A DNA stretch of 64,000 nucleotides from Anaerovoracaceae bacterium (GTDB lineage Bacteria > Bacillota > Clostridia > Peptostreptococcales > Anaerovoracaceae). The notes under the pieces are model-generated. The model searched no databases and was not told the origin of the DNA. It saw nothing but the letters and a program-made list of their open reading frames with translations. The position numbers were made by a program, and so were the translations under genes. The stretch spans positions 31,728-95,727 of the forward strand of contig JAZQQK010000034.1 in NCBI GenBank assembly GCA_045629065.1. Reading direction: 5' to 3'. This document shows positions 24,373 through 33,940 of the stretch, piece after piece (positions within the stretch are counted from its first letter, which is position 1; each line of letters opens with the position of its first letter).

Positions 24373-25496
24373 TAAATTTCAAACTCTTTACTACCATCTT
24401 TGAATGTTATCTTGTATTTACCACTATTAAAGTCTTTTACCGAAGAAATAATCTTTCCATCAGCGTTTTCAAGCATCGAATAGCCTTTATTTAGAACTTT
24501 TTGTGGATGGTTTTCTTCTATTAACAGTTTCATCTTCTCAATCTCGTGCTCGTATTCGACGATACGGTCTTGTATTTCCGTTTGAATATCCTTGAAGATA
24601 CTGTCAATTCTTAACTGATCATATTTTACTTTATTATTGAGTTCCACTAATAAATCGTTTTTATAGTTTTCTACCTTGCGCATGAGCTCATTAATATCTG
24701 GAACAGCTATTTCAGCGGCTGCCGTAGGCGTTTCAGCCCTCAAATCAGCGACGAAATCAGATATTGTGAAGTCTATTTCGTGCCCTACGGCTGATATTAT
24801 AGGGATTTTAGAGTTATATATAGCTCTTGCTACTATCTCTTCATTGAAGGCCCAAAGGTCCTCAACAGAGCCACCACCACGACCAACAATCAGCGTATCT
24901 ATGTCGTTATAACGGCTGTCAGCATTAATCATATCGATAGTGGTTGCGATATCATAGCTTGCGCCTTCTCCCTGAACGAGTGTCGGGAAAATAATTATGT
25001 CAACAAGTGTATTTCTACTTGTTATTATCTTTTTTATGTCTTCTACCGCAGCTCCTGTATTAGAAGTTACGATTCCGACTTTCTTTGGAAAGCTTGGAAT
25101 TGGCTTTTTATGAGAAACATCGAATAAACCTTCCTTTTCAAGCTTATCTTTCATAAGTTGAAAAGCCATTGATAGGTTTCCATCACCTGCTACACTTATC
25201 GATTTAACGAATAAAGTATAGGTTCCACCTTTTTTATAGACATTAATTGATCCATCAATTATTACTTCAAGCCCATCGCCAAGCTCATATTCGAGATTTC
25301 TCACGTATGAAGCAGCAAAAAAGCAATTAATCTTGGAAAATTCATCATTAATGGAGAAATAAACATGGCCGGAACTGTGATATTTGAGGTTGGATATCTC
25401 TCCTACCACTGTAACTCGTCCCAATAAAGGATCAGTAGTCAAAACCCTTGATATGTAATCATTTAGTTGTGAGACGGTTACTGGTTTTAACGCCAT
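24372..25496 (-). CDS. xseA: Exodeoxyribonuclease VII large subunit
   Basis: N-terminal OB fold (TVSQLNDYISRVL...VVGEISN), a catalytic core and a coiled-coil C-terminus. Confidence 0.9.
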   Translation of the reverse strand: MALKPVTVSQLNDYISRVLTTDPLLGRVTVVGEISNLKYHSSGHVYFSINDEFSKINCFFAASYVRNLEYELGDGLEVIIDGSINVYKKGGTYTLFVKSISVAGDGNLSMAFQLMKDKLEKEGLFDVSHKKPIPSFPKKVGIVTSNTGAAVEDIKKIITSRNTLVDIIIFPTLVQGEGASYDIATTIDMINADSRYNDIDTLIVGRGGGSVEDLWAFNEEIVARAIYNSKIPIISAVGHEIDFTISDFVADLRAETPTAAAEIAVPDINELMRKVENYKNDLLVELNNKVKYDQLRIDSIFKDIQTEIQDRIVEYEHEIEKMKLLIEENHPQKVLNKGYSMLENADGKIISSVKDFNSGKYKITFKDGSKEFEI

Positions 25497-26413
25497 CTAT
25501 TCTTTCCTCCGAGTAAAGCAATGCCAACTGCATTGTCTGTTGAAAGTTTTGGATCCCCAAAAATAATGTTATATTCAGGGAATTTATTAGTAATATAGTT
25601 TCTAAGAAAGACGCTTGAACTTACGCCTCCAGAGAAAATAAAATCATTTATTTTGTATTTGTTTGCGAGCTGTTCTACCATCTTTGAAATAGCAACACAA
25701 ATTTCGAGCATCAAAGAACAAGCGATTTCTTTCTCGTCGTACTTCCCAATAGCATTTTGCGCTTGTGTTTCTATACCGGAAAGGTTAATTTCACTGTTTT
25801 CAACCTTAATCCTTGTGAATATGGGCTTAACTATTTCGCACTCTCTTGCAAGCCTATCTATTTCTTGTCCACATGGAAAGTCGTAGCCTAAAGCGACACC
25901 CACTCTGTCTAGTACTTGTCCAAAAGAAATATCTTTTGTCTTTCCTACGATCTCGTATCCATTATTGACCAGGATAGCTTCTGTCGTTCCGCCACTGAAG
26001 TGAAATGTGATAAAACCTTCTCTATCCTTTAGCTCAGTAAAGTGCCTAATAGCCTCAATATGGCCTTCCTGATGAGAAAACTTATAGCAAGGTATATTAA
26101 GACTTTGGGCAATTACTTTGCCGTAGCCCTCTCCTGCGAGGAAGCAAGGCATATATGAGCCCTCTACTGGTCTTGGACGAGTTGATACGGAGATGCAAGC
26201 AATATTATTACGATATTCATCATTAGCTAATATGCTATTAATTAATTCAGGCAATCTAGTATTGTGCTGAAAGAAAGCGTCGGATTGTCTAAGTCCTCTC
26301 TCGCCTCTTTTAACATCCAAAAATTGCTGAATATTAACTAAAACATTGCTCTTATCATCTACAAGTGCGACTGAAGTTTTATAGTTTGATGTATCAATAC
26401 CTAGTGAATACAT
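25487..26413 (-). CDS. TsaD/Kae1-like (peptidase M22/ASKHA) paralogue of unknown role
   Basis: LGIDTS, SHQEGHI (HxxxH metal motif), FSGGTTE, GQVLDRVGVALGYDFPCGQEIDRLA, SGGVSSS and STDNAVGIA align with TsaD, but it is shorter (308 aa) and divergent. Confidence 0.65.
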   Translation of the reverse strand: MYSLGIDTSNYKTSVALVDDKSNVLVNIQQFLDVKRGERGLRQSDAFFQHNTRLPELINSILANDEYRNNIACISVSTRPRPVEGSYMPCFLAGEGYGKVIAQSLNIPCYKFSHQEGHIEAIRHFTELKDREGFITFHFSGGTTEAILVNNGYEIVGKTKDISFGQVLDRVGVALGYDFPCGQEIDRLARECEIVKPIFTRIKVENSEINLSGIETQAQNAIGKYDEKEIACSLMLEICVAISKMVEQLANKYKINDFIFSGGVSSSVFLRNYITNKFPEYNIIFGDPKLSTDNAVGIALLGGKNRWR

Positions 26414-26802: not shown

Positions 26803-27098
26803 TATTTTTCCTTTAATTTCACACCTTCAACATGAATATTTACTTCATCAGGTGTTTTAGAAGTTATAGATTCAACGGTTTCAATGACAGCAGTCTGTAC
26901 ATTCCATGCGACATCAGGAATTTTCATACCATAATCAATAATTAAATCAATGTCATACTGTGAAATGTCCTGATCTTTATCGTATGAAACCTTAATATCT
27001 TTAAGTTCATTCACACCTTCAACCTTGCGAATTGCTTTTACCATGCTGGTTTTCAAGGCGTTTTTATTGAATTTTTGACTAGTGTTTAGATTATCCAT
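26802..27098 (-). CDS. Asp23/Gls24-family (alkaline shock) protein
   Basis: The Asp23 domain pattern (..AIRKVEGV.., ..NIHVEGV..) is present. The start is uncertain: the ORF track extends to 27176, overlapping the upstream gene and running through a GC-rich hairpin, so the ATG at 27098 is preferred. No start has a good SD. Confidence 0.7.
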   Translation of the reverse strand: MDNLNTSQKFNKNALKTSMVKAIRKVEGVNELKDIKVSYDKDQDISQYDIDLIIDYGMKIPDVAWNVQTAVIETVESITSKTPDEVNIHVEGVKLKEK

Positions 27099-27110
27099 AT
27101 ACGGTCTAAA

Positions 27111-27132
27111 GGCCCCGGTAAATGCCGGGGCC
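27111..27132 (-). terminator. GC-rich hairpin after the large redox subunit (weak terminator or RNA-stability element)
   Basis: GGCCCCGG-cattta-CCGGGGCC on the minus strand, 6 nt after the stop at 27139. The tail is only UUUAGA. Confidence 0.5.
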
Positions 27133-27138
27133 ATATGT

Positions 27139-30100
27139 TTATTTTGTTGGATTAGCTGGCTTTGGAAGTCTGTCAATGATGCATTGCATCAAGCTATCTG
27201 TGCATGGTAATACATCTTGAATCTTTCCATTCTTAACAGGAACTAAGTTCTTAGTCTCTGGAACTAAAACGCCTCCATTAACTTCTCCGAGTTCTGCATA
27301 TCTATATGGAAGTACAGCATCAGCCATCTCATCAGAGATGTCATCTGTGTCATCCCAAGGTAATTCCACCTCGTAGATATATGCAATTTCGGAAGCAATC
27401 TCCCAGTTAGCAAATTCGATAAACTCATCAATTGCTGCCTCTACTGGTTGAAGTCTTCTTTCAGTGTTTGTATATGTTCCTGCAGTGGAAGCAAAGCCTG
27501 TTCCTGGAAGAACAACATCAGCTTTTGCAGCTAATTCAGTCATGTGAGTATCGCATACTGCAAGGAATTCAAGGTTCTTAGTATTTATTGGTGCGTTTTC
27601 ACCGAATATGAATAATCCCTTAACTCCCTTTAAGCTTTCAGCACCTTCAGTGATACCGAGGTCGATTAAACCTTGTGAATTGTTCTTTGGTCTAACCATT
27701 AAGATACCATCACGAGGTGCTCCGATGTGTCCTGAAAGAACCGCAATGTTACCAATCATTGTTGCTGCATCAACTGATACTGCGTTCATTTGGTAAACAA
27801 ACATAGCTTTCTTTGCCTTCATGTATTCTTCAGCAATTGCCTGAGCTTCAGCTGAAACCTTAACATCCTTAAACGATTCAACTAATTCAGTGCAATCCAT
27901 TCCACATGATGCACAAGGTGTTCCCTTGAGATCAATTACTGCCTTTGCAATTTCCTTTAAGAATGAAACATCCTTTGAGCCATTAATATCTATGAGTTTA
28001 GCACCCTTTTCTACTGCCTGTTTAATCTTGAGGTCGATAACAGGGTTATTCATAGCGACATCAGTGGAATGTCCAACAGTAATGATAAGGTTTGTTGAAA
28101 GTAATTCGTCGATTGTATTAGGAGAAGCATCAATTCCTATTACCTTCTTTAAGCCGTTTTCACGGTTGTTAAGGCAAATAGTTTTTGCTCCCATAATGTC
28201 AGCCATAGTCTTGATAGCATATGCTTCTTCGTTAGTATATCTATCTGATACAGCAACTGCGATAGCTTCCTTGCCATATTTTTGAGCCATGATTTGCATC
28301 TTCTTTGCAATAAGCATGAATGCTTCGTGATAATCAGTCTCTACAAAGGAATCCTCTTCCCTGATTAATGGCTCTTCTAACTTATCTTCTAATACTGAGC
28401 AGTCAAAGCCCCACTTACCTTTGCCACAAAGGAGTCCCTTGTTAACAACGCCTTCCTTATCTGGGTTAGCTTTTACAAGAGTATCACCTACTGATTCAAG
28501 GAGTAAGGAACAACCTACTGAGCAGTATGAGCAAGTTGTAGGAGTAACATCAGTTTCTGTAGGAACTTCCTTAACCATTGTAGTTTTCTCTTGAAGAGCA
28601 CCACATGGACAAACAGATACGCACTGACCGCAAGAAATACAGCCTGATTCAGCCAATGGCTTTTCCATATTTGGTTTAACAACTGTATCAAAACCACGGT
28701 TTACGAGTCCTAAAGCGCCTACTCCCATAACTTCGTCGCAAACTCTTACACATAAGCCGCAAAGTATGCACTTATTAGGATCGCGAACGATGAACGGATG
28801 GTTATCTACGAACTCTACTACATGTTTTTCACCAGCGAATCTTTCCGGATGAACATCATATTGGTTAGCAAAGTCTATTAACTTACATTCATAGTAGTCG
28901 TGGCATCCACATTCTAAGCAACGAGAAGCTTCTGCTACGGCTTGCTCTACTGTATATGAATTTGGAATAACTTCTGTGAAATTATCCTTTCTTTTATCTG
29001 CTGATAACTGAGGAAGCTCAGGTCTACAAAGTCTCTCTCTATCTTCAAATGATTCTGAAGTGATATCGTCTCTTGTAACAACGAATGATGGTTCATAACT
29101 TACTAATTCACCATAGAGATAGCTATCGATAATTTCTGAAACCTTCTTTGCATCAGCAATTGCTTCTACTGCGATAGAAATTTTATCGTTACCGCAGTCA
29201 CCACCAGCAAAAACGCCAGGGATTGAAGTCATGAATGTCTCTTTATCGTAAGCGATTGCGCCCTTCTTAGTCTTGTCACAGTCGAAGATGGAAGCATCAA
29301 CAGCTTGACCAATAGCTAAAATCATTGTATCAAGCTTGATTGTTTCAGTCTTTCCTGGAACAGGAACTGGCTTACGACGTCCAGATGCATCTGGTTCGCC
29401 TAATTCCATAACTTGTAAAACAACTTCTTTGATGTGACCATTCTTATCTTTCTTAACCTCAATTGGGTTGGTTAAGTTCTTAAAGATAACGCCTTCCTCT
29501 TCTGCTTCTTCGATTTCAACTCTATCGGCTGGCATTTCATCCTTAGTTCTACGGTAGATGTTATATACTTCCTTAGCGCCAAGTCTAACTGCAGTACGGC
29601 AAGCATCCATAGCTGTGTTACCACCACCTACGATAGCTACTTTATCGCCGAGCTTGATTTCATCGTTTCTAACTACTCTTCTTAAGAAATCAATACCTCC
29701 GATGACACCTTCAGCATCTTCACCAGGGCAACCAACACCAGTTGATACCCAAGCACCGATACCGAGAAGTACAGCATCGTTTTCTTCTCTGATAGTTTCG
29801 AATGGGATATCTACACCAATTTTTACATTAGTCTCGATATCAACACCCATTTCTTCTATTGTTAAGATTTCCTCATCTAATACGGCCTTAGGAAGTCTAT
29901 ATTCAGGAATACCATATCTTAACATACCACCTGCCTTAGGCATCTGTTCATAGATTGTAACAGCATGTCCCATTTGACGAAGGAAATATGCAGCGGATAA
30001 ACCCATAGGGCCACCACCGATGATGGCAACGGACTTTCCAGTTTCTTCAGCAACTTCTGGAACGAAATTCATACCGGACTCAAGATCCATATCTGCAACG

Positions 30101-30615
30101 AATCTCTTTAATTGTTGAATTGAAATAGGTTCATCGATTAAACCACGACGGCAGTCTTTTTCGCATGGATGTGGACATACACGACCAAGTGCTGCAGGAA
30201 GTGGAATCTTATCTTTTACGAGTTCAATTGCCTTTTCAAATTCACCGTTTGCAATTAAACCTACATAACCTTGACAATCAGTGTGCGCTGGGCATGCAAG
30301 AACGCAAGGTGGACGGCAATCTCCAACGTGGTTGGAGAGTAAGAGTTCGAGGTTAGTCTTTCTTGACTCTGTAACTCTTTCTGTATTAGTTCTTACAACC
30401 ATGCCAGGTGCAATTTCAGTAGCGCAAGCCTTGCAAAGCTTTGGATTACCTTCTACTTCACACATGCAAAGTCCACAAGAACCATAGATCTTTGTTCTTT
30501 CATCGTAGCAAAGAGTAGGAACAAAAATATCATTTTCTTTGCATACTTCTAAAATAGTTTGTCCAGGATAGCCTGTGACTTCTTTACCATTAATGTTTAA
30601 ATTGAATTTATTCAT
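27139..30615 (-). CDS. Large multidomain Fe-S flavoprotein: 2Fe-2S ferredoxin + GltD-like NAD(P)H/FAD module + 2x[4Fe-4S] + truncated molybdopterin-oxidoreductase-like domain (StnC / Bfu 'A'-type subunit)
   Basis: N-terminal CYDERTKIYGSCGLCMCEV (2Fe-2S). GltD-like CPHPCEKDCRR with two Rossmann motifs, IIGGGPMGLSAAY and IVGGGNTAMD. CILCGLCVRVC and CISCGQCVSVCPCGA. Molybdopterin-type 4Fe-4S TTCSYCSVGCS...CGKG. No H-cluster motifs and no C-terminal molybdopterin-binding domain. Confidence 0.6.
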   Translation of the reverse strand: MNKFNLNINGKEVTGYPGQTILEVCKENDIFVPTLCYDERTKIYGSCGLCMCEVEGNPKLCKACATEIAPGMVVRTNTERVTESRKTNLELLLSNHVGDCRPPCVLACPAHTDCQGYVGLIANGEFEKAIELVKDKIPLPAALGRVCPHPCEKDCRRGLIDEPISIQQLKRFVADMDLESGMNFVPEVAEETGKSVAIIGGGPMGLSAAYFLRQMGHAVTIYEQMPKAGGMLRYGIPEYRLPKAVLDEEILTIEEMGVDIETNVKIGVDIPFETIREENDAVLLGIGAWVSTGVGCPGEDAEGVIGGIDFLRRVVRNDEIKLGDKVAIVGGGNTAMDACRTAVRLGAKEVYNIYRRTKDEMPADRVEIEEAEEEGVIFKNLTNPIEVKKDKNGHIKEVVLQVMELGEPDASGRRKPVPVPGKTETIKLDTMILAIGQAVDASIFDCDKTKKGAIAYDKETFMTSIPGVFAGGDCGNDKISIAVEAIADAKKVSEIIDSYLYGELVSYEPSFVVTRDDITSESFEDRERLCRPELPQLSADKRKDNFTEVIPNSYTVEQAVAEASRCLECGCHDYYECKLIDFANQYDVHPERFAGEKHVVEFVDNHPFIVRDPNKCILCGLCVRVCDEVMGVGALGLVNRGFDTVVKPNMEKPLAESGCISCGQCVSVCPCGALQEKTTMVKEVPTETDVTPTTCSYCSVGCSLLLESVGDTLVKANPDKEGVVNKGLLCGKGKWGFDCSVLEDKLEEPLIREEDSFVETDYHEAFMLIAKKMQIMAQKYGKEAIAVAVSDRYTNEEAYAIKTMADIMGAKTICLNNRENGLKKVIGIDASPNTIDELLSTNLIITVGHSTDVAMNNPVIDLKIKQAVEKGAKLIDINGSKDVSFLKEIAKAVIDLKGTPCASCGMDCTELVESFKDVKVSAEAQAIAEEYMKAKKAMFVYQMNAVSVDAATMIGNIAVLSGHIGAPRDGILMVRPKNNSQGLIDLGITEGAESLKGVKGLFIFGENAPINTKNLEFLAVCDTHMTELAAKADVVLPGTGFASTAGTYTNTERRLQPVEAAIDEFIEFANWEIASEIAYIYEVELPWDDTDDISDEMADAVLPYRYAELGEVNGGVLVPETKNLVPVKNGKIQDVLPCTDSLMQCIIDRLPKPANPTK

Positions 30616-30630
30616 GTTACCTCCTCCTTT

Positions 30631-32379
30631 CTACTTTTTGATAATTGCATCGAATGCGCAGTTGTCTAAGCACTTACCGCACTTGATACATTTAGCTTGA
30701 TCGATAACGTGTTGTCCCTTAACAGCACCTGTAATAGCACCTACTGGGCAATTCTTAGCGCACTTTGTGCAACCCTTACATTTATCAGTAATTTCAATTG
30801 TGATTAATGCTTTGCAGGAATGAGCCGTGCACTTGTGGTTTAAAATATGATCTTCGTATTCATTTCTGAAATGACGAATTGTTGAAAGAACTGGATTTGG
30901 AGCTGTTTGACCAAGTCCACAAAGTGAACCTTGCATAACCTTAGTGGCAAGCTCTTGCAGAAGTTCTATATCTCCTTCCTTACCATTTCCTTCGGTAATT
31001 CTTGTCAATATTTCAAGTAATCTCTTTGTACCAATTCTACAATAGTTACATTTACCGCAAGATTCATCGCGTGTGAAGTTTAAGAAGTATCTTGCCATGT
31101 CTACCATACAAGTATCTTCGTCCATTACGATCATTCCGCCGGAGCCTACGATTGCACCAGTCTTTGTAATGTCTTCATAAGTAACTAATGTATCACCTAA
31201 AGCTGCTGGGATACATCCACCTGATGGACCACCCATTTGAACGGCCTTGAATTGCTTATCATTCTTGATGCCGCCGCCGATACCGTAGATAATATCATTA
31301 ATCTTCATTCCCATAGGAACTTCGACTAATCCACCCTTCTTAATCTTACCTGCTAAAGCAAATACCTTAGTTCCAGGTGATTTTTCTGTTCCGAATTGTG
31401 AGAATGCTTTACCACCGTTGAAAATAATCCAAGGTACATTTGCTAATGTTTCAACGTTGTTAATATCTGTTGGCTTCTGCCAGAATCCCTTTGCTGCAGG
31501 GAAAGGTGGCTTGAGTCTAGGCATTCCACGTTCACCCTCAAGTGAAGCGATTAGTGCAGTTTCCTCGCCGCATACGAATGCACCAGCACCGGCCTTAATA
31601 TAAATATCAAAATCAAATCCAGATCCAAAAAGATTCTTTCCTAAGTATCCTTTTTCTCTGGCTTGAGCCATTGCAATCTCAAGACGCTTGATTGCAAGAG
31701 GATATTCGGCACGACAATAAATGACTCCTTGGTGAGCGCCCATAGCATAACCTGCGATAGCCATGCCTTCTAGCACTGAGTGTGGGTCACCCTCTAGTAC
31801 TGATCTATCCATGAAAGCACCTGGGTCGCCTTCGTCTGCGTTGCAAACCATGTACTTTTCAGGTCCAGGAGATGCTTTACAAGCATTCCACTTAAACCAT
31901 GTAGGGAAACCAGCTCCGCCTCTACCTCTAAGTCCAGAAGCTTTCATCTCTTCGATTACGTCTTCTGGCTTCATCTTTGTGAGAACCTTTTCTAAAGCTT
32001 TATAACCATCTTTAGCTACATATTCGTCGATGTTTTCAGGGTTGATTACACCACAATTTCTTAATACAACTCTCGTTTGCTTGCCGACGAATTGCTTATC
32101 TTCTTCGCTGATTGCTTTTTCTTGGAACACTTTATGGTTCTTCAAATGGCTTTCAACAATATCTTTAACATCACTTGGCTGAACCTTAACATATCTAGTT
32201 AAGTCGCCATTGTCTTCATAAACGTCAACGATAGGTTCAAGATAGCAAGTTCCAACACAACCTGTTATTGTGAGAGTCACATCGAGCTTATTTTCTTTTA
32301 GTTGCTTTTCAAATTCAACATAAGTTTTCTTAGCACCTGTTGCAATACCACAGGAGCCTTGTCCAACTACTACTTTCAT
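30631..32379 (-). CDS. NuoF/HydB-like flavoprotein subunit (N-terminal thioredoxin-like 2Fe-2S domain, FMN/NADH site, C-terminal 2x[4Fe-4S])
   Basis: GLRGRGGAGFPT (FMN), ESCGKCNYCR and SLCGLGQTAPNP (N3 cluster), with C-terminal CKGCTKCAKNCP and CIKCGKCLDNC. Confidence 0.85.
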   Translation of the reverse strand: MKVVVGQGSCGIATGAKKTYVEFEKQLKENKLDVTLTITGCVGTCYLEPIVDVYEDNGDLTRYVKVQPSDVKDIVESHLKNHKVFQEKAISEEDKQFVGKQTRVVLRNCGVINPENIDEYVAKDGYKALEKVLTKMKPEDVIEEMKASGLRGRGGAGFPTWFKWNACKASPGPEKYMVCNADEGDPGAFMDRSVLEGDPHSVLEGMAIAGYAMGAHQGVIYCRAEYPLAIKRLEIAMAQAREKGYLGKNLFGSGFDFDIYIKAGAGAFVCGEETALIASLEGERGMPRLKPPFPAAKGFWQKPTDINNVETLANVPWIIFNGGKAFSQFGTEKSPGTKVFALAGKIKKGGLVEVPMGMKINDIIYGIGGGIKNDKQFKAVQMGGPSGGCIPAALGDTLVTYEDITKTGAIVGSGGMIVMDEDTCMVDMARYFLNFTRDESCGKCNYCRIGTKRLLEILTRITEGNGKEGDIELLQELATKVMQGSLCGLGQTAPNPVLSTIRHFRNEYEDHILNHKCTAHSCKALITIEITDKCKGCTKCAKNCPVGAITGAVKGQHVIDQAKCIKCGKCLDNCAFDAIIKK

Positions 32380-32384
32380 CTTTC

Positions 32385-32864
32385 TTAACCCCTTTCTTGA
32401 TATTCCTTAAGGATTTTAACTACGGAATCTTTTGTTAAGCTACCATAAGTTTCATCTTCCTCTGTAGTTCTTATCATCATTACAGGAGCAAGAGAACAGC
32501 AACCTAAGCAAGCTACCTTGTTGATTGTAAATAATCCATCAGGTGTAGTTTCACCATCTTCGATTCCCAAGTATTCGCAAACTTTCTCGGCAATAGATTC
32601 TGATCCATTAACGTGGCATGCCGTACCTTGGCAAAGCATAACCAAGTACTTTCCTATTGGCTCAAGTCTAAATTGAGCATAGAATGTAGCTACTCCGTAA
32701 ATCTTTGCAGGCTTAATACCTGTGGCTTCAGAAATATGGTTGATACAATCCTTGGAAATGTAGCCATAGATTCCTTGAGCCTTTTGAAGAATAGTAATTA
32801 GGCTACCCTTCACATTTGCATACTGTTCGAGTATGGGCTGAAGTTCTTTGAAGTCGTCTTTCAT
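32385..32864 (-). CDS. NuoE/HydC-like [2Fe-2S] subunit
   Basis: CQGTACHVNGS ... CLGCCSLAPVMMI, 159 aa, SD AAGGAAGG. Confidence 0.85.
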   Translation of the reverse strand: MKDDFKELQPILEQYANVKGSLITILQKAQGIYGYISKDCINHISEATGIKPAKIYGVATFYAQFRLEPIGKYLVMLCQGTACHVNGSESIAEKVCEYLGIEDGETTPDGLFTINKVACLGCCSLAPVMMIRTTEEDETYGSLTKDSVVKILKEYQERG

Positions 32865-32887: not shown

Positions 32888-32906
32888 TTGTTTAAAATAG
32901 TAACAA
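32888..32906. promoter_or_regulatory. Imperfect inverted repeat, a possible Rex-type operator
   Basis: TTGTTACTATTTTAAACAA on the minus strand (TTGTT-N9-AACAA), in the predicted 5' UTR of the redox operon. The half-sites resemble TTGTTAA/TTAACAA, but the spacing is 1 nt longer than canonical. Confidence 0.25.
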
Positions 32907-33049: not shown

Positions 33050-33940
33050 ATGGGCAATAAATTTAAAGCAGTAATCATATTAGCAGTCGTAATTGTGGTA
33101 GTTGGCGTTTTAGCTGTCATTGTAAGCAATGATTCAGAGTTGGACAAACCTATTTATGTTACATTTACAGGTATCGAAGATGAAACATGTTATGCTGCCC
33201 CTTTCTGCTATGATTTTGATGCTAAATATATTGACTTTTATGACCAAAAAGAACGAAATAATGAGCTTGTAAATGGGTTCGCATATAACTATGTTCAAGA
33301 GTGCGACGACCCTGCTGTTTTCAATGCTTTTTGCAATTATACAGATTTCTCAAAACTGACATTCATGTATGCAATTTACAATATAAAAGATGGAGATCAA
33401 ATCTGCATGCCTTACGACACTCCAGATATCTTCAAAGTTGTGCTTTATTATCCTATTAGTGATAAATTTGTCATCACGAGAGTTGCTTCAAAATTTGCGG
33501 ATAAGAGCTATTTCAAAGCTAATTATGATTTAGATAATGATATCTTCCAAATGCAGAGACAATTCTTCTTCTTTAAAGATTTCCTCATGTATTTCTTACA
33601 GGTTGCCCTTTCAACTATTGCAATATTCTTTGTTGCTAAAATGTTTGATTATAGAAAAAAAGAAGAACTAAAAGTAATCATGACAAACAGTGTCATTTCG
33701 CTCTTAGTTCTTAATCTTTTAACTCTTGTTATAAAAGTATTTATTGGCGTAAATCTGCTGATTTACTCGTATGCTGCTCTTGTGTTACTGGCATTTATAT
33801 TCCAATATGGTATCTATTCCAAGCGTCTTGCATTCAACGGTGAAGAAATCGATAAAGAAAGACCAATTATATTCGCATTCGCAGCTAATTGTATCGCATT
33901 CGGTATCTGCGTAATCATTGCAGTGTTTATATTCGGCTAA
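33050..33940 (+). CDS. Hypothetical membrane protein (signal-anchor, ~150-aa Cys-containing external domain, ~4 C-terminal TM)
   Basis: 296-aa ORF with its own promoter. No family recognised. Confidence 0.5.
   Translation: MGNKFKAVIILAVVIVVVGVLAVIVSNDSELDKPIYVTFTGIEDETCYAAPFCYDFDAKYIDFYDQKERNNELVNGFAYNYVQECDDPAVFNAFCNYTDFSKLTFMYAIYNIKDGDQICMPYDTPDIFKVVLYYPISDKFVITRVASKFADKSYFKANYDLDNDIFQMQRQFFFFKDFLMYFLQVALSTIAIFFVAKMFDYRKKEELKVIMTNSVISLLVLNLLTLVIKVFIGVNLLIYSYAALVLLAFIFQYGIYSKRLAFNGEEIDKERPIIFAFAANCIAFGICVIIAVFIFG

Follow-up and report, generated by a model that had tools for sequence, protein, structure and literature searches.

We find that a three-gene operon in a 64,000-nucleotide (nt) stretch of an Anaerovoracaceae bacterium genome (assembly GCA_045629065.1, contig JAZQQK010000034.1, positions 31,728 to 95,727 of the forward strand; hereafter the window) very probably encodes a soluble heterotrimeric electron-bifurcating transhydrogenase of the Stn / Nfn-Bfu (NfnABC) type. 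A NuoE-like gene, a NuoF-like gene and a large NuoG-like gene with a GltD/NfnB-like insert lie next to one another, separated by gaps of 5 and 15 nt, which is the arrangement that marks members of this family. An earlier reading made from the DNA letters alone (the sequence-only reading) had described products of 159, 582 and 1158 amino acids (aa), had given each a domain architecture and had proposed profile hidden Markov models as a check; the Pfam and NCBIfam profiles reproduce the set and agree with the architecture (Pfam matches are reported at E ≤ 0.01). Its assignment of the operon to StnABC/NfnABC is likewise supported, both by the best full-length matches of all three subunits in the Protein Data Bank (PDB) and by the diagnostic residues. 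It had also called the class little characterised, a description that is outdated, as such enzymes have already been purified, mutated and solved by cryo-electron microscopy (PMC7483475, PMC10482914, PMC11829005, PMC12018979). The locus is a typical, intact member of a published enzyme family, and recognising it is annotation rather than discovery. With class, structure and mechanism all published, it raises no new question; what it offers is a confident function for genes to which annotation pipelines commonly give names such as 'NADH-quinone oxidoreductase E/F' and, for the large subunit, 'glutamate synthase small subunit / molybdopterin oxidoreductase'.

In phmmer searches against all PDB chains, the three subunits matched 8oh5/8oh9 and 9bov/9bp5 best and over their full length (E = 0 to 1e-52), followed by 9n5u, whose chains carry the names NfnA, NfnB and NfnC in the PDB. 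From chain lengths and residue numbering, we assign 8oh5/8oh9 to the Sporomusa ovata StnABC structure of Kumar et al. 2023 and 9bov/9bp5 to the Caldicellulosiruptor saccharolyticus NfnABC structure of Li et al. 2025. The 9n5u/9n5v entry is probably that of the archaeal Nfn-Bfu structures (PMC12018979) and of the short Thermococcus sibiricus enzyme (PMC9304861). The large subunit scored 1063 bits against 9bov_A (residues 4–1083, so that about 75 C-terminal residues fall outside the alignment with C. saccharolyticus NfnA) and 1042 bits against 8oh5_C (residues 1–1125); over the first ~890 aligned residues it is ~52% identical to C. saccharolyticus NfnA and ~50% identical to S. ovata StnC. The best matches of the NuoE-like subunit were 9bov_C (2.8e-57) and 8oh5_A (9.5e-52). 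For the NuoF-like subunit, we used the order of phmmer scores as a proxy for phylogeny. It descends from 8oh5_B (assigned to StnB; 881 bits over residues 1–579) through 9bov_B (assigned to C. saccharolyticus NfnB; 858 bits) and 9n5u_B (NfnB; 772 bits) to the HydB chains of [FeFe] and [NiFe] hydrogenases (724–579 bits), the beta subunit of a formate dehydrogenase (6vw7_B; 416 bits) and complex I NuoF (about 380 bits). Respiratory complex I itself was considered and rejected: its subunits score far below Stn/Nfn in the PDB search, and the genes around the operon (CBS/CorC, U32 peptidase, asp23, nusB, xseA) include none for a membrane arm.

The homology of the NuoE- and NuoF-like subunits to HydC and HydB (7q4v_B, 724 bits; 8a6t_B, 679 bits) would also fit a HydABC-type electron-bifurcating [FeFe] hydrogenase, a reading to which we give next to no credence. 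The three proteins contain neither a PF02906 domain nor an H-cluster motif, and the strings TSCCP, MPCxxK, CCP and PCxxK are absent from all of them, just as the sequence-only reading had claimed. That reading had named hidden H-cluster motifs as the thing to look for against its own proposal, and a search by both domain and motif revealed none. In this genome, PF02906 occurs only on other contigs (C50 and C1).

Orthologues were translated from 76–80 related loci and aligned to follow each ligand, and the diagnostic residues named by the structure papers are all present and invariant in these 76–80 relatives. These comparisons show orthology, a complete set of ligands and the conservation of those ligands. 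PF01257 (E = 3.5e-50) identifies the 159-aa protein as a thioredoxin-like 2Fe-2S domain of the NuoE type, with Cys78, 83, 119, 122 and 123 invariant in 76 relatives; its single [2Fe-2S] cluster goes by A1 in the Stn nomenclature and by C1 in the Bfu nomenclature. In the 582-aa protein, Pfam and NCBIfam profiles place an N-terminal 2Fe-2S-ferredoxin-like domain, Complex1_51K with the flavin mononucleotide (FMN) site, SLBB, NADH_4Fe-4S and a C-terminal 2x[4Fe-4S] domain. This last domain, which reduces ferredoxin, has two CxxCxxCxxxC motifs, and all of their cysteines are invariant. Further sites of this subunit are listed with the other features in Table 1.

Table 1. Features of the transhydrogenase operon and its products (positions are those of the window; residues are those of the respective protein)
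Feature	Position	Strand	Residues	Remarks
NuoE-like gene, stnA / nfnC	32385-32864	minus		159 aa
NuoF-like gene, stnB / nfnB	30631-32379	minus		582 aa
Large-subunit gene, stnC / nfnA	27139-30615	minus		1158 aa
NuoF-like: N-terminal thioredoxin-like metal site			C10, C41, C45, E48	3Cys+Glu (3C1E), from alignment; invariant
NuoF-like: FMN loop			152-158	GRGGAGF; invariant among relatives
NuoF-like: ADEGDPG loop			181-187	Invariant; E183/D185 correspond to S. ovata E184/D186
NuoF-like: NADH-site residues			F158, K163, E273, F293	Equivalents of C. saccharolyticus residues; invariant
NuoF-like: B1 [4Fe-4S]			C441, C444, C447, C487	Invariant
NuoF-like: Zn-linker region			H511, C517, C522	Candidate invariant ligands, part of a 3Cys+1His set
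Large subunit: N-terminal [2Fe-2S] ferredoxin domain	30382-30606	minus	4-78	PF13510, E = 2.6e-18
Large subunit: GltD/NfnB-like module	29101-30321	minus	99-505	PF14691, PF07992; two [4Fe-4S]
Large subunit: CxxCxCx5C [4Fe-4S], then NuoG-type 2x[4Fe-4S]	28594-28920	minus	566-674	PF22117 Fer4_Nqo3
Large subunit: FdhF-like domain	27142-28548	minus	690-1158	PF04879, PF00384
Candidate promoter	32951-32923	minus		TTGAAT-17-TAAAAT with upstream TG (extended -10-like); consensus scan of the 185-nt upstream region
Strong Shine-Dalgarno sequence	32878-32871	minus		AAGGAAGG; direct sequence reading
GC-rich hairpin	27111-27132	minus		GGCCCCGG-loop-CCGGGGCC; begins 7 nt past the stop codon, then only TTT

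The 1158-aa subunit runs through Fer2_4, Fer4_20 with Pyr_redox_2 (the GltD/NfnB-like part), Fer4_Nqo3 (2x[4Fe-4S]), Molybdop_Fe4S4 and Molybdopterin, and is, by its domain order, a NuoG-like scaffold into which a GltD/NfnB-like module for NADP(H) and flavin adenine dinucleotide (FAD) has been inserted. Its Cys motifs (residues 36–64, 100–155, 566–577, 616–626, 659–669 and 695–730) correspond to one [2Fe-2S] and six [4Fe-4S] clusters, the count expected for this subunit (PMC10482914). C36, C47, C50 and C64 of the N-terminal [2Fe-2S] domain are invariant in 80 relatives, as is every Cys of the three [4Fe-4S] motifs at 566–577, 616–626 and 659–669. Within the GltD/NfnB-like module, the ligands of the 3Cys+Lys [4Fe-4S] cluster, the one nearest to FAD in the chain (C108, C147, C151 and K170), are present and invariant, as are C114 and R240 (R239 in S. 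ovata). The Lys ligand is strictly conserved in StnC, with Glu in its place in NfnB (PMC10482914, PMC11829005). The sequence-only reading had seen two Rossmann GxGxxG motifs here. The first, the FAD motif GGGPMG at 200–205, stands, whereas the second, the NADP(H) motif, has the form GxGxxA (GGGNTA at 329–334, within the string VGGGNTA) and is followed by YRR at 354–356. Both dinucleotide motifs are invariant, and the GxGxxA form has been tied to NADP(H) in StnC (Kremp et al., PMC7483475).

The GltD-like module also matches the large subunit of NfnI (5jca_L; 2.7e-89 in phmmer). We rejected the two-subunit NfnAB / NfnSL enzyme (Pyrococcus furiosus NfnI, 5jca; Thermotoga maritima, 4ylf), in which a free-standing NfnB(L) pairs with the PyrK-like NfnA(S), as an identity for the operon. 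It carries out the same overall reaction with a homologous GltD-like FAD/NADPH module, but its subunit composition and bifurcation site are unrelated to those of the studied enzyme, where the module is built into a NuoG-like protein and has Lys170 in the position of the Glu ligand. The FAD of Stn is not the bifurcating flavin (PMC10482914). No separate NfnB-like gene was found in the genome, although NfnS itself was not searched for.

The FdhF-like domain keeps the Molybdop_Fe4S4 cluster, with C695, C698, C702 and C730 invariant in relatives. In the solved homologue, the domain is a catalytically inactive scaffold, a remnant with a structural role in tetramerisation (PMC10482914). The studied protein has both this domain and its two cluster sites, as do the enzymes that form tetramers of heterotrimers, and by analogy the same oligomer may form. 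Were the domain catalytic instead, the operon would encode an FdsABG-like NAD(P)-linked formate dehydrogenase, which we consider highly unlikely. PF00384 and PF04879 are both present in the large subunit, formate dehydrogenase alpha subunits rank in the middle of its PDB matches (for example, 6tg9_A, 1.9e-73), and Cys814 aligns to the catalytic Cys of R. capsulatus FdsA. In that alignment, however, Leu replaces the His that should follow Cys814, and the 'tdtcar' segment that precedes the catalytic Cys has no counterpart; moreover, both solved Stn/Nfn enzymes have Ser at the position of Cys814, and close relatives differ there (Cys in 62, Ser in 17, Thr in 1). The pterin-binding domain Molydop_binding (PF01568) is not among the Pfam matches listed at E ≤ 0.01 for the large subunit, and there is little space for it because the Mo-type region spans residue 690 to the end of the protein at 1158. 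No formate oxidation was seen with the S. ovata enzyme (PMC7483475), the FdhF domain of which is described as inactive (PMC10482914). The sequence-only reading had argued from this truncation against a formate dehydrogenase, and the argument holds, given that there is neither a C-terminal pterin domain nor a pair of Cys or selenocysteine (Sec) with His. An intact Mo/W-bis(pyranopterin guanine dinucleotide) site with a catalytic Cys or Sec, which it had named as the contrary evidence, was looked for in the large subunit and not found. We therefore exclude both the hydrogenase and the formate dehydrogenase, because H-cluster, pterin-binding domain and Cys/Sec-His pair are all missing.

A separate feature of the FdhF-like domain is the string PCASCGMDC at residues 900–908 (27892–27918), a CxxCxxxC string with a 3-residue insertion that is unique to the protein of the studied genome and sets it apart from S. 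ovata StnC. In 79 aligned relatives, these positions are Lys, Ala, Ser or Glu, and the loop around them varies. The string could be a lineage-specific metal site or mere drift of a surface loop.

The mechanism, carried over from the solved orthologues, would be NADH + reduced ferredoxin + 2 NADP+ <-> NAD+ + oxidised ferredoxin + 2 NADPH. In the GltD-like insert of the large subunit, hydride would pass between NADP(H) and an FAD that does not bifurcate, and single electrons would run from the Lys-ligated [4Fe-4S] along the FeS chain of that subunit to the FMN in the NuoF-like protein. This FMN would make up the bifurcation site together with the B1 [4Fe-4S] and the NuoE-like [2Fe-2S], with a high-potential branch leading to NAD+ at the FMN and a low-potential branch leading to ferredoxin at the mobile 2x[4Fe-4S] domain that ends the NuoF-like protein. 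As for the FdhF-like C-terminus, it would be a catalytically dead tetramerisation scaffold.

The same fold might serve another acceptor, for instance in an NADPH-dependent reductase of sulfur or polysulfide like Nso, or in an NADPH:ferredoxin or NADPH:NAD+ oxidoreductase that does not bifurcate. In favour of this, Thermococcus litoralis has the homologous NsoABC, which shares 40.6% identity with StnC, and the S. ovata large subunit by itself has NADPH:viologen activity (PMC7483475). We nonetheless judge this quite improbable. The studied large subunit is the long bacterial form with all clusters, the BfuBC core is complete, including the NuoE-like [2Fe-2S] that published mutation found to be required for bifurcation, and the closest matches are two enzymes with demonstrated bifurcating transhydrogenase activity.

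S. ovata StnABC has the same gene order, three-subunit make-up and domain layout as the studied operon, and the cofactor ligands are shared, including C114, K170, R239 and the E184/D186 loop (S. ovata numbering). Its subunits measure 178/584/1172 aa against 159/582/1158 aa here, and the NuoE-like subunit of the studied operon is ~19 aa shorter at the N-terminus. S. ovata is an acetogen that uses the Wood-Ljungdahl pathway, whereas acetyl-CoA synthase and Rnf were not found in the studied genome; the S. ovata stn genes neighbour metVF/pabAB (PMC7483475), whereas the studied operon lies between CBS-CorC and asp23-nusB. C. saccharolyticus NfnABC (PMC11829005) provides the top-scoring large and NuoE-like subunits. 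The cluster ligands C108, C147, C151 and K170 have identical numbering in the two enzymes, and the NADH-site residues and the N-terminal 3Cys+Glu site are shared. C. saccharolyticus is likewise a non-acetogenic fermenter, but a thermophile. With 9n5u the studied enzyme shares the BfuBC core and the GltD-like NADPH module (9n5u_A, 5.4e-191; 9n5u_B, as above), although the 963-aa NfnA of that structure is ~200 residues shorter than the long bacterial form found here. Schut et al. 2022 (PMC9304861) describe a T. sibiricus BfuA that is likewise ~200 residues shorter than its S. ovata counterpart and that lacks one cluster's cysteines. Among genomes of the Anaerovoracaceae family, G002, G010, G016, G033 and G099 have shorter large-subunit forms (open reading frames (ORFs) of ~976–1026 aa that match residues 1–810 only), which are reminiscent of the NfnA of 9n5u; G099 has two copies in tandem range, with ORFs of 1378 aa and 1017 aa.

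Relatives were confirmed in at least 275 species genomes in a scan of species-representative genomes, and the best 80 are 69–80% identical over their full length. Most come from gut or rumen metagenome-assembled genomes labelled Clostridia, Anaerovoracaceae, Lentihominibacter, Anaerovorax, Zhenpiania or Terrisporobacter; Kremp et al. (PMC7483475) had already predicted Stn in, among others, Terrisporobacter glycolicus and Acetoanaerobium sticklandii. In 75 of the 80 related loci the three genes follow one another as NuoE-NuoF-large, and contig ends cut the other five. Within the Anaerovoracaceae, 58 of 101 sampled genomes contain matches. Stn/Nfn-Bfu is thus common in uncultured Anaerovoracaceae-like Clostridia of gut and rumen, where it probably sets the supply of NADPH from ferredoxin and NADH.

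The host, a gut-type member of the Clostridia with a genome of 1.39 Mb (97.8% complete), encodes three enzymes of the pyruvate:ferredoxin oxidoreductase (PFOR) type, two [FeFe] hydrogenases and formate-tetrahydrofolate ligase (FTHFS). Searches of the genome found no second NuoF-like gene, no PntB, no glucose-6-phosphate dehydrogenase (G6PD) and no acetyl-CoA synthase, and nothing reaching the family cut-off for RnfC. The enzyme most likely works mainly in the NADPH-forming direction, confurcating NADH with ferredoxin that PFOR-type enzymes have reduced, and so feeds biosynthesis; making NADPH in this way is the role proposed for Nfn-Bfu generally (PMC9304861). It is probably the NADPH supplier of a small-genome, non-acetogenic gut fermenter.

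Several considerations weigh against this picture. Activity, direction and ferredoxin partner are ones we infer for the studied organism from its genes, and NADPH may also come from elsewhere, for example from NADP-dependent dehydrogenases. At its N-terminal site, the NuoF-like subunit could bind [2Fe-2S], as in the S. ovata model, or Zn, as in the C. saccharolyticus model, for both solved enzymes share one ligand pattern. In addition, the gene is dispensable in relatives, since the sole sampled genome of the same genus (G004, 92% complete) lacks it, as do 42% of the sampled family genomes. A stronger claim, which we hold to be unlikely, has two parts. As searches of the genome found neither Rnf nor PntAB, and likewise no oxidative pentose-phosphate pathway, no Rex and no separate NfnB-like gene, Stn could be the sole link between ferredoxin, NADH and NADPH and hence a metabolic choke point; and the Cys-rich loop at 900–908 could be an extra metal or redox-sensing site that none of the solved homologues shows.

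The only other GltD-like gene of the genome lies on contig C50 (L088:4410-7984) and encodes a 616-aa 'NAD(P)-binding protein' (NF009410, 590 bits), the N-terminal stretch of which resembles the NuoF-like subunit at residues 420–534 (tblastn, 28% identity). The next gene encodes a 595-aa group A6 [FeFe] hydrogenase (NF040763, 773 bits), and the pair is probably a non-bifurcating NAD(P)H-linked hydrogenase.

The sequence-only reading had given the operon its own promoter. A consensus match does lie upstream of the first gene (Table 1), but the region as a whole is no richer in promoter-like sites than its shuffles (17 against 19.9 ± 4.2). A Rex-like inverted repeat, TTGTTACTATTTTAAACAA, is found in the operon leader at 32888–32906, 42 nt upstream of the start. 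We rejected it as a Rex operator, as a similar motif occurs in only 3 of 73 related upstream regions and in none at a comparable position, and we rejected Rex regulation, as the genome has no Rex DNA-binding domain (PF06971). At the other end of the operon, the GC-rich hairpin may act as a weak terminator or as an attenuator ahead of asp23; because only three T's follow it, read-through into asp23-nusB is possible. In the region 27044–27176, the 124-aa asp23 ORF, called from a TTG start, overlaps the end of the large-subunit gene and reads through the hairpin. In this form the ORF is probably an artefact of how it was called. Two ATGs in the same frame, at 27098 and 27044 and past the hairpin, are more plausible starts, and the Pfam match of this Asp23-family ORF covers profile positions 33–108 only.

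The operon sits within a core housekeeping stretch, with efp, mltG, an O-methyltransferase gene, a U32 peptidase gene and the CBS/CorC gene upstream and asp23, nusB, a tsaD-like gene, xseA, ispA and dxs downstream. The upstream synteny, from efp through CBS/CorC, is kept in the closest relatives. A divergent 296-aa ORF on the plus strand (33050–33940) belongs to no Pfam family and has no tblastn match in the 80 related loci. Between nusB and xseA lies the gene for a 308-aa TsaD/Kae1-family protein (25487–26413; PF00814, E = 3.8e-28), which has the same placement in several related loci, at 46–52% identity.

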